A program made the translations under genes and the position numbers. The notes beneath the pieces are model-generated. The model was not told the origin of the DNA. It saw only the letters and a program-made list of their open reading frames with translations, and ran no database searches. Below are positions 1-1,846 of a stretch of 1,846 bases of DNA, piece by piece. Numbering within the stretch: position 1 is the first letter of the stretch; every line of letters starts with the position of its first letter. Source of the stretch: Escherichia coli (GTDB taxonomy: Bacteria > Pseudomonadota > Gammaproteobacteria > Enterobacterales > Enterobacteriaceae); assembly GCF_003334255.1 (NCBI RefSeq), contig NZ_QOWU01000145.1. One strand, given 5' to 3'.

Positions 1-22
1 AGCTGATAGAAACAGAAGCCAC
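1..22 (-). CDS. insA: insA (IS1 transposition regulator) N-terminal fragment, 7 codons from a GTG start, truncated by window edge
   Basis: Minus strand from 22 reads GTG GCT TCT GTT TCT ATC AGC T, i.e. (M/V)ASVSIS, matching the known InsA N-terminus MASVSISCPSC. Preceded by GAGG. Only 22 nt are visible. Confidence 0.6.
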
Positions 23-42
23 TGGAGCACCTCAAAAACACC

Positions 43-48
43 ATCATA
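43..48 (-). promoter_or_regulatory. -10-like hexamer TATGAT in the IS1 insA promoter region, directing transcription leftward out of the window
   Basis: TATGAT on the minus strand lies 20 nt upstream of the insA GTG, with GAGG as a Shine-Dalgarno 7 nt before the GTG. The insA promoter is known to lie in the IS1 left end; the exact hexamer assignment is my inference. Confidence 0.5.
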
Positions 49-54
49 CACTAA

Positions 55-77
55 ATCAGTAAGTTGGCAGCATCACC
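55..77 (-). repeat. IS1 terminal inverted repeat IRL (about 23 bp), terminus at position 77 facing glcA
   Basis: Minus strand 77..55 reads GGTGATGCTGCCAACTTACTGAT, the known IS1 IRL. Exact extent of the IR is from established descriptions of IS1. Confidence 0.85.
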
Positions 78-1752
78 CTGGACCCAAATGTATATGCCGA
101 TGGGAGGACTGGGGCTATCCGCTCTGGTCGCCCTGATCCCGATAATATTCTTCTTCGTTGCACTCGCGGTATTACGTCTGAAAGGACATGTCGCTGGAGC
201 AATAACCCTTATATTATCTATCCTGATTGCAATATTCGCCTTTAAAATGCCGATTGATATGGCATTTGCTGCTGCGGGCTATGGCTTTATTTATGGATTA
301 TGGCCAATAGCGTGGATTATTGTCGCGGCGGTGTTCCTGTATAAATTAACCGTTGCCAGCGGGCAGTTCGATATTATCCGCAGCTCGGTTATCTCCATCA
401 CCGACGATCAGCGTTTGCAGGTGTTACTGATTGGTTTCTCCTTTGGTGCGTTGCTGGAAGGAGCGGCTGGCTTTGGTGCGCCGGTGGCGATTACCGGTGC
501 GCTGCTGGTGGGCCTGGGCTTCAAACCGTTATACGCGGCGGGGCTGTGTCTGATTGCCAATACTGCGCCGGTGGCGTTTGGTGCGTTGGGCGTGCCGATT
601 CTGGTCGCCGGTCAGGTAACGGGAATCGATCCGTTCCACATTGGCGCAATGGCGGGACGTCAGTTACCGTTCCTGTCGGTTCTTGTGCCGTTCTGGCTGG
701 TAGCAATGATGGACGGCTGGAAAGGGGTGAAAGAGACGTGGCCAGCGGCGCTGGTTGCTGGGGGAAGCTTCGCTGTCACTCAGTTCTTTACCTCTAACTA
801 TATTGGTCCGGAACTGCCGGATATTACTTCGGCGCTGGTGAGTATCGTCTCACTCGCTTTATTCCTTAAAGTCTGGCGGCCGAAAAATACCGAAACGGCA
901 ATCAGCATGGGACAATCCGCAGGTGCGATGGTGGTAAATAAGCCATCTTCTGGCGGTCCCGTGCCTTCAGAATATAGTCTGGGGCAAATCATTCGAGCGT
1001 GGTCACCGTTTTTAATCTTAACGGTGCTGGTCACCATCTGGACCATGAAGCCGTTTAAAGCGTTATTTGCTCCGGGCGGCGCGTTTTATTCACTGGTGAT
1101 TAATTTCCAGATCCCTCATTTGCATCAACAAGTGTTGAAAGCGGCACCCATTGTCGCCCAACCAACGCCAATGGATGCGGTGTTTAAATTCGACCCCCTC
1201 TCGGCTGGCGGCACCGCTATTTTTATTGCGGCGATTATCTCTATCTTCATCCTCGGTGTGGGGATCAAGAAAGGTATTGGCGTCTTTGCCGAAACGCTAA
1301 TTAGCTTGAAGTGGCCGATACTGTCGATTGGCATGGTGCTGGCGTTCGCCTTCGTCACCAACTATTCTGGCATGTCCACCACGCTGGCGCTGGTACTGGC
1401 AGGTACAGGCGTGATGTTCCCGTTCTTCTCACCGTTTCTCGGCTGGCTGGGCGTATTCCTTACCGGCTCGGACACCTCCTCTAACGCCCTGTTTGGTTCA
1501 CTGCAATCGACCACGGCGCAGCAAATCAACGTCTCTGACACCCTGCTGGTGGCAGCAAACACCAGCGGCGGCGTAACTGGCAAGATGATCTCCCCGCAAT
1601 CTATCGCCGTGGCCTGCGCCGCGACGGGCATGGTGGGCCGAGAATCTGAACTGTTCCGCTACACCGTGAAGCACAGTCTGATTTTTGCCAGCGTTATCGG
1701 CATTATCACCCTGCTGCAGGCGTATGTGTTTACCGGGATGTTAGTCTCGTAA
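64..1752 (+). CDS. glcA: Glycolate / L-lactate / D-lactate permease GlcA (LctP family, TC 2.A.14); 5' end abuts IS1 terminus and native start codon is absent
   Basis: Single long ORF ending at TAA 1750..1752. From [40 protein letters not shown] onward the translation matches my recollection of E. coli GlcA (about 560 aa, native N-terminus MVTWTQMYMP; homolog LldP starts MNLWQQNYDP). It is highly hydrophobic with a central hydrophilic loop, as expected for LctP permeases. The 64 coordinate is the ORF-track TTG, which lies inside IS1 sequence. The first in-frame ATGs are at 88, 94 and 100 (native Met7, Met9, Met11), so the true initiation site is uncertain. Confidence 0.93.
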
Positions 1753-1769
1753 ATCAATAAAGCCGGATG

Positions 1770-1792
1770 GGTGATGCTGCCAACTTACTGAT
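1770..1792 (+). repeat. IS1 terminal inverted repeat IRL (about 23 bp), terminus at 1770 facing glcA
   Basis: GGTGATGCTGCCAACTTACTGAT at 1770..1792. Confidence 0.85.
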
Positions 1793-1798
1793 TTAGTG

Positions 1799-1804
1799 TA
1801 TGAT
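1799..1804 (+). promoter_or_regulatory. -10-like hexamer TATGAT in the IS1 insA promoter region, directing transcription rightward out of the window
   Basis: TATGAT at 1799..1804, GAGG Shine-Dalgarno at 1814..1817, insA GTG at 1825. The spacing fits a promoter, leader and start arrangement. Hexamer assignment is inference. Confidence 0.5.
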
Positions 1805-1824
1805 GGTGTTTTTGAGGTGCTCCA

Positions 1825-1846
1825 GTGGCTTCTGTTTCTATCAGCT
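1825..1846 (+). CDS. insA: insA (IS1 transposition regulator) N-terminal fragment, 7 codons from a GTG start, truncated by window edge
   Basis: GTG GCT TCT GTT TCT ATC AGC T at 1825..1846 encodes (M/V)ASVSIS, matching the InsA N-terminus, and is preceded by GAGG. Confidence 0.6.

Follow-up and report, generated by a model that had tools for sequence, protein, structure and literature searches.

The stretch of DNA analysed here (1,846 nt from Escherichia coli, referred to as the window) is very probably a complete contig of a short-read de Bruijn assembly, which carries the glcA gene and stops 77 bases into collapsed IS1 at each of its ends. The tidy inverted ends of 77 or 78 bases are almost certainly an artefact of assembly without biological meaning, whereas the two junctions that join glcA to the left end (IRL) of IS1 are real and were present in the sequenced DNA. 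That the window represents the whole contig, the value of k used by the assembler and the presence of full-length IS1 copies past both ends are what we infer. According to the mechanism proposed, a single-copy glcA piece of 1,692 bp would be joined at each end to the IRL end of IS1, in inverted orientation. Because IS1 is multi-copy, the assembler would collapse all its copies into one repeat node, and extension of the unique glcA edge would end at the first k-mer made up entirely of IS1 sequence; the contig would therefore keep IS1 positions 1-77 at each end and then halt, with k most likely being 77. A probe consisting half of IS1 and half of glcA found matches in 5,412 of the 5,426 complete E. 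coli genomes, the median number of places per genome being 10 and the maximum 68. The portion of a repeat kept by a contig of this kind should equal k, or k minus the shared flank bases, and 77 bases are kept at both ends of the window.

The repeat search on the window reported a single feature, a perfect inverted repeat of 78 nt with its arms at 1-78 and 1769-1846. Its chance origin can be ruled out, since 200 shuffles yielded 0 matches to the junction pattern. As reference we used the 768-bp IS1 of E. coli TST3 (L003, positions 2578-3345), annotated as IS1B with a frameshifted transposase. The left arm (1..77, minus strand) corresponds to IS1 positions 77 down to 1, its reverse complement being identical to the reference at 77/77 bases, and the right arm (1770..1846, plus strand) corresponds to IS1 positions 1-77, again with 77/77 identity. 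The exact identity of both arms bears out the initial annotation, made from the letters of the window, according to which each end is precisely IS1 1..77. The same annotation had taken the 78th matching base for a coincidence on the host side, and rightly so: native TST3 DNA carries C and G at the places of the pair C78 / G1769, a match that two host flanks would show by chance in 1 case out of 4. The native glcA base preceding position 78 at the left junction is also a C and equals the terminal base of IS1, and for this reason BLAST extends its alignments with glcA to position 77.

Both arms represent the IRL, that is the insA-proximal, end of IS1 and are inverted relative to each other; the IRR end differs from the IRL end in 5 of the first 23 and in 42 of the first 77 bases. 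Each arm contains the terminal inverted repeat of IS1, GGTGATGCTGCCAACTTACTGAT, followed by further IS1 sequence; this repeat of 23 bp occupies positions 55-77 in the left arm and 1770-1792 in the right one. The promoter scan found an inward promoter-like site of IS1 in either arm, CTGCCA-16-TATGAT at 70-43 (minus strand) on the left and its counterpart at 1777-1804 on the right. The insA coding sequence begins at IS1 position 56 (RefSeq annotation of the TST3 record: CDS at 2633, IS1 start at 2578), and its GTG lies at 22-20 (minus strand) in the left arm, where the first 22 nt of insA are retained, and at 1825-1827 in the right arm, the gene being cut by the window end in both cases. A complete IS1 of 768 bp comprises insA and insB' together with a programmed frameshift, and of such an element the window carries 77 bp on either side. 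After position 77, real IS1 reads on as GTCCCTCC, and the window stops short of GTCCCTCC on both sides.

Between the arms, positions 78..1769 (plus strand) hold a host segment, which reaches from nt 9 of the E. coli glcA coding sequence to 17 nt past the stop codon and shows 0 mismatches in 1692 nt to native TST3 DNA. This core is 100% identical to many complete E. coli genomes, in which it is annotated as glcA, glycolate permease GlcA, and the allele is that of strain HS and its relatives. Its identity as a GlcA / LctP permease gene is given by 100% DNA identity to RefSeq glcA (WP_000259302.1 locus) over CDS nt 9-1683, and PF02652 (Lactate_perm) is the Pfam entry on record for the 554-aa product. 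The coding sequence in the window (78..1752, plus strand, stop codon at 1750-1752) lacks the 8 nt at its beginning, ATGGTTAC, and with them the annotated start codon: upstream of the junction the native sequence reads ...CAATATGGTTAC followed by CTGGACCC, whereas the window reads ...GCATCACC followed by CTGGACCC. As the sequence shows, the left IS1 removes the annotated start codon of glcA and cuts the gene off from glcB and the glc operon. In-frame ATG codons are left in glcA at 88, 94 and 100, and in the ORF list a TTG at 64, located within IS1, opens an IS1-glcA fusion ORF of 562 aa. GlcA of 554 aa, starting from the ATG at 88 (Met7), is the product most often called in intact loci (9,942 blocks); this form was considered as a pointer to the junctions of the window and dropped, because an ordinary call in intact loci is uninformative in this respect. 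An outward IS1 promoter driving glcA was also considered and rejected, as the scan shows only the inward promoter-like sites of IS1 in the arms. On the downstream side, the native glcA terminator hairpin is AAGCCGGATGAT-CGTTAAT-ATCATCCGGCTT, as can be read in the DNA downstream of glcA in TST3, in K71-77 and in many public contigs. Ten nt of its 5' arm are present at 1760..1769 (plus strand), the remainder being replaced by IS1; the right junction is located inside this arm, where the native sequence reads AAGCCGGATG followed by ATCGTTAATATCATCCGGCTT. The right IS1 thus interrupts the terminator hairpin, and the scan found no terminator-like site after the glcA stop codon in the window.

How public assemblies end inside IS1 was investigated by scanning GTDB representative genomes and metagenome contigs for IS1 positions 1-30 and measuring the IS1 bases left at each cut. 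About 150 contig ends were found to be cut inside IS1, and the kept lengths form ladders topping at 55, 77, 99 and 127. Among the metagenome contigs, 60 ends keep 50-55 bases, 9 ends keep 76-77 and 11 ends keep 124-127, while among the representative genomes 99 bases are kept by 6 ends, 77 by 4 ends and 127 by 3 ends. Exactly 77 IS1 bases are found at four ends of SPAdes-style NODE contigs in the genome set (L046, L113-L115) and at six more ends in the metagenome set. In several assemblies the IS1 bases kept and the host flank bases shared add up to a constant: 63 in 9/9 ends of Citrobacter NCU1, 74 in 10/10 ends of Franconibacter and 99 in Pantoea piersonii; a constant sum of this kind is the behaviour of strict unitigs. 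Position 77 is not a natural boundary of IS1, because all 57 of the 57 copies uncut by contig ends continue as IS1 beyond it (identity of 90% or more across positions 78-177). Public assemblies also include contigs that have IS1-IRL at each of their ends (L093, L168, L204, L215/L216). It has been described that contig ends produced by the SPAdes process overlap in sequence and that contigs of repeats are multiply connected (Unicycler paper, PMC5481147). The ladders, the continuation of the uncut copies and the absence of the junctions elsewhere, to which we return below, all support the proposal of the initial annotation that the window is a de Bruijn contig bounded by collapsed IS1. Its further suggestion, that the gene-sized island is partly a product of assembly, gains support from unrelated SPAdes contigs, which end in the same 77-base stubs.

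Closest to the window in this respect are three contigs of Serratia marcescens 1001295B_180824_A7, NODE_15, NODE_39 and NODE_8 (L113-L115), which bear SPAdes-type names and each keep precisely IS1 positions 1-77 at a true contig end. The window differs from them in that both ends of one short contig lie in the same repeat end, which results in a terminal inverted repeat. NODE_15 and NODE_8 share the adjacent host base and hence have an identical suffix of 78 nt, the pattern seen in the window.

A value of 77 for k and an assembler of the SPAdes type are likely, and 77 is the default largest k given in the SPAdes manual for reads of roughly 150 nt. It should be noted that both host flanks of the window show the same base, G, adjoining the IRL. 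For a toy genome that contains several copies of IS1, the strict unitig built from 77-mer nodes covers window positions 2..1845, one base less per end because the flanks share the base next to IS1, and a node size of 78 gives 1..1846. With this shared edge of one base, k = 77 therefore rests on path extension of the SPAdes type. The value named by the initial annotation stands in so far as 77 is a ladder top in public assemblies, but the strict unitig model needs a node size of 78. The largest k allowed by SPAdes is 127 (PMC5481147). In the SPAdes-named OQIG01 contigs (L168/L231), kept and shared bases sum up to 128-129, and since this exceeds 127, SPAdes paths must be able to run through short shared edges. 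Two independent precedents are at hand for such path extension, the Serratia contigs (L113/L115) and those of OQIG01 (L168/L231). A general rule that SPAdes always keeps exactly k was tried and rejected, given that the 53/54/55 and 76/77 ladders of NODE contigs show many ends obeying the strict unitig rule.

The same artefact could also have arisen with another k, in a strict unitig that has a 78-nt overlap with the contigs next to it (k = 79 with an overlap of k-1, in the style of Velvet or ABySS) or, as a variant, one of 79 nt, in which case either flank would have two bases in common with another IS1 flank. Its attraction is that a node size of 78 reproduces the window exactly, whereas 77 falls short by the base at either end; strict ladders with a constant sum are common, an even constant does exist (the 74 of Franconibacter), and the ends of PPYF01, which keep 79, 77, 77, 76 and 76 IS1 bases, fit a k = 79 ladder that yields 77. 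We nevertheless consider another k rather unlikely: 77 itself is the ladder top in several assemblies and 79 is rare as final k, the SPAdes precedents keep k bases despite a shared base, and the strict rule lets the number of kept bases differ from end to end, which would make an equal 77 at both an extra coincidence.

Either junction was also sought in sequences determined elsewhere. Probes of 101 bp centred on each junction did not match contiguously anywhere in the 5,426 complete E. coli genomes and at best gave two separate pieces, and the whole window found only bare glcA or bare IS1 among the PLSDB plasmids. A single degenerate pattern, designed for both junctions and validated on the window itself, gave 0 matches in 100,044 GTDB representative genomes, 0 in metagenome contigs and 0 in IMG/VR. 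An exact-protein look-up of the junction-specific ORF of 562 aa (TTG at 64) returned nothing on record. The 552-aa and 550-aa forms lead to contigs starting inside the 5' end of glcA, all of which have the native 3' flank; the IS1 junctions of the window are absent from these contigs. A unit of the type IS1-glcA-IS1 at other loci or replicons, as expected of a Tn9-like element, was not found in the genomes, plasmids and contigs searched. A longer finished sequence running through the junctions, named in the initial annotation as the finding that would speak against its proposal, was likewise looked for and is absent from the genome, plasmid and contig collections.

These searches bear on the idea that the window was taken arbitrarily from a longer resolved sequence with complete IS1 copies on both sides of glcA, the cuts being due to the windowing. 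Finished genomes with IS1 on both sides of glcA do exist, K71-77 being an example, and nothing more specific speaks for an excerpt. Given one cut, however, the same IS1 coordinate at the other is a coincidence of about 1 in 768; the coordinate is moreover 77, a standard k, the length of 1,846 is no round number, and neither junction occurs in the 5,426 complete E. coli genomes or the other collections. An excerpt is accordingly highly improbable. Another way to account for the ends would be to take the arms of 77 bp as genuine remnants, either solo IS1-IRL fragments or a MITE-like pair bounding a glcA island, and the perfect terminal inverted repeat of 78 nt does resemble a transposon-like unit. 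Yet position 77 lies 22 nt into insA, at a point which all 57 uncut IS1 copies pass; two independent truncations at one base are implausible, such a unit is missing from the genomes, plasmids and contig collections searched, and stubs of 77 bases end unrelated SPAdes contigs too. Genuine remnants are hence scarcely credible.

It may also be asked whether both junctions belong together. In a mixed population, or through chimerism, junctions from different subpopulations could have been joined, and no single molecule need then carry both; IS1 is active, and the region between glcA and sslE is variable between strains. By de Bruijn logic and in the toy graph, an uninterrupted glcA at comparable depth would be expected to branch the graph on the host side of each junction and to keep the contig from reaching 77 nt into IS1, whereas the 1,692 bp between the junctions form one unbranched path, which leaves very little probability for a mixed origin. 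We thus retain a whole contig halted in collapsed IS1 as the preferred reading.

For such a contig, a segment with the same IS end on both sides could, from the mechanics of transposition, stem from two independent insertions or from an intramolecular replicative inversion. Both routes predict identical sequences at the glcA / IS1 junctions. In the case of simple insertion, the partner end on the glcB side should read ...CAATATGGTTACCTGGACCCA followed by GGTAATGACTCCAACTTATTGAT, with CTGGACCCA as 9-bp duplication, and that on the sslE side ...ATCAATAAGTTGGAGTCATTACC followed by AGCCGGATGATCGTTAATATCATCCGGCTT, with AGCCGGATG as duplication. That the glcA segment between full-length inverted IS1 copies is a functional unit, either an invertible on/off cassette or a mobile composite transposon, appears improbable. 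If it were a cassette, recombination between the IS1 copies would flip the segment and switch glcA on or off, and as a composite transposon the IS1 pair would be able to move glcA. Composite transposons of the Tn9 type resemble the window in having a gene-sized segment flanked by two IS1 ends. Tn9 itself has directly repeated IS1 copies and carries cat. In the window, by contrast, the cargo is a chromosomal gene truncated at its 5' end, the unit was found nowhere else, and the full IS1 copies past the contig ends are putative.

The significance of the window therefore lies mainly in quality control: a terminal repeat of 78 nt around a gene-sized island should here not be mistaken for a MITE, a hairpin element or a mobile cassette. 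A k-mer assembler leaves such stubs wherever a short unique segment sits between copies of a collapsed repeat. The rule that IS bases kept and flank bases shared are to be added makes the k of the assembler readable from contig ends and the stubs recognisable as such. Caution is also required with automated annotation, as gene callers would give a seemingly intact GlcA of 554 aa from Met7 and thereby mask the loss of the start codon, of the operon link and of the terminator.

The interval between glcA and sslE is rich in IS1 in finished genomes, and the IS1 junctions at glcA described here are new sites of an ordinary kind in this known IS1-rich region. Strain HS (NC_009800, L116) has the same glcA allele as the window (100% identity) and likewise an IS1 just downstream of glcA, which is a simple insertion between glcA and sslE with the direct 9-bp target duplication CAGATAACC. 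In contrast to the window, this insertion has the opposite orientation (IRR proximal) and sits further downstream by about 107 bp, and the 5' end of glcA in HS is without IS1. In K71-77 (NZ_CP040886, L001), glcA lies between two inverted IS1 copies, as we suppose for the window. These copies have reciprocal 9-bp flanks (CTGGGAGAA / TTCTCCCAG and CTCTGCGCC / GGCGCAGAG), from which a completed IS1-mediated inversion can be deduced, and glcA is inverted relative to glcB. K71-77 may therefore be a real example of the context the window comes from, although its glcA is intact, with the junctions 186 bp away on the upstream and about 445 bp away on the downstream side, IRR ends face the gene and its glcA allele differs at 37 positions. 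In 35 genomes, IS1-IRL is found roughly 25-530 bp downstream of the site in the window, at many different positions. The far-side partners of IS1 copies in the glcA-sslE interval are a gspK remnant in TST3, inverted pppA/sslE in A23 and a restriction-modification gene in LR-50; the IS1 copies of these three strains have no target duplication, which indicates IS1-mediated rearrangements in all of them.

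The interval between glcA and sslE is a recurrent IS1 site among complete Escherichia coli genomes (L003, L116, L117, L118 and the matches H76-H100): in 35 of them an IS1-IRL, the insA-proximal end of the element, lies about 25-530 bp past the window's right junction, that is, downstream of position 1769, and the spacings take 16 distinct values among the 25 matches listed. On the far side these copies adjoin a gspK remnant, inverted pppA/sslE or an R-M gene. Because the far-side partners differ and the copies concerned lack a target duplication, the sequences suggest repeated IS1-mediated deletions and inversions in this interval. 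The copy in E. coli HS is a simple insertion with a 9-bp duplication, CAGATAACC.

An analogue of the window in a finished genome is found in E. coli K71-77 (L001, NZ_CP040886; 2501-6350), where two IS1 copies in inverted orientation flank glcA, which is in turn inverted relative to glcB. Since the 9-bp IS1 flanks are reciprocal (CTGGGAGAA/TTCTCCCAG and CTCTGCGCC/GGCGCAGAG), this arrangement is, by its signature, an IS1-mediated inversion. There glcA is faced by the IRR ends of IS1, and in the window by the IRL ends.

Contig ends inside IS1 were compared in L078-L087, L097-L106, L091-L094 and L139-L258. The sum of the IS1 bases kept at the end and the host bases shared with another IS1 flank is constant within each strict-unitig assembly (63, 74 or 99), and the assembler's overlap length can be read from it. 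The sum can exceed k in SPAdes-named contigs, reaching 78 for k=77 and 128-129 for k of at most 127. Exact IS1 ends, often on short contigs, also occur in assemblies labelled as Streptomyces (L013, L107), Bacillus sanguinis (L065), Scytonema (L077) and as MAGs of Sporosarcina (L035), Paenochrobactrum (L046) and Firmicutes (L014, L088, L095), far from Enterobacteriaceae; contamination, enterobacterial or from a cloning host, or mis-binning is the most likely source.

In the window, an ORF that starts from TTG 64, within the IS1 end, continues in frame into glcA and encodes a 562-aa IS1-glcA fusion (64-1752; MAASP|WTQ...), of which an exact-protein look-up returned no record anywhere. The 554-aa form (88-1752, from ATG 88) is the commonest glcA call even at intact loci (9,942 blocks), and automated annotation of the window would therefore mask that the annotated start codon is missing. 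Foreign IS-like terminal sequence is joined to glcA in three unrelated public contigs (L121 1-31, L129 1-55, L130 1-26; window coordinates about 91-99), at slightly different positions, all within the first ~25 nt of the gene; the L129 head appears to resemble an IS150 end. Judging from these joins, the glcA 5' end may be a repeated target of insertion sequences.
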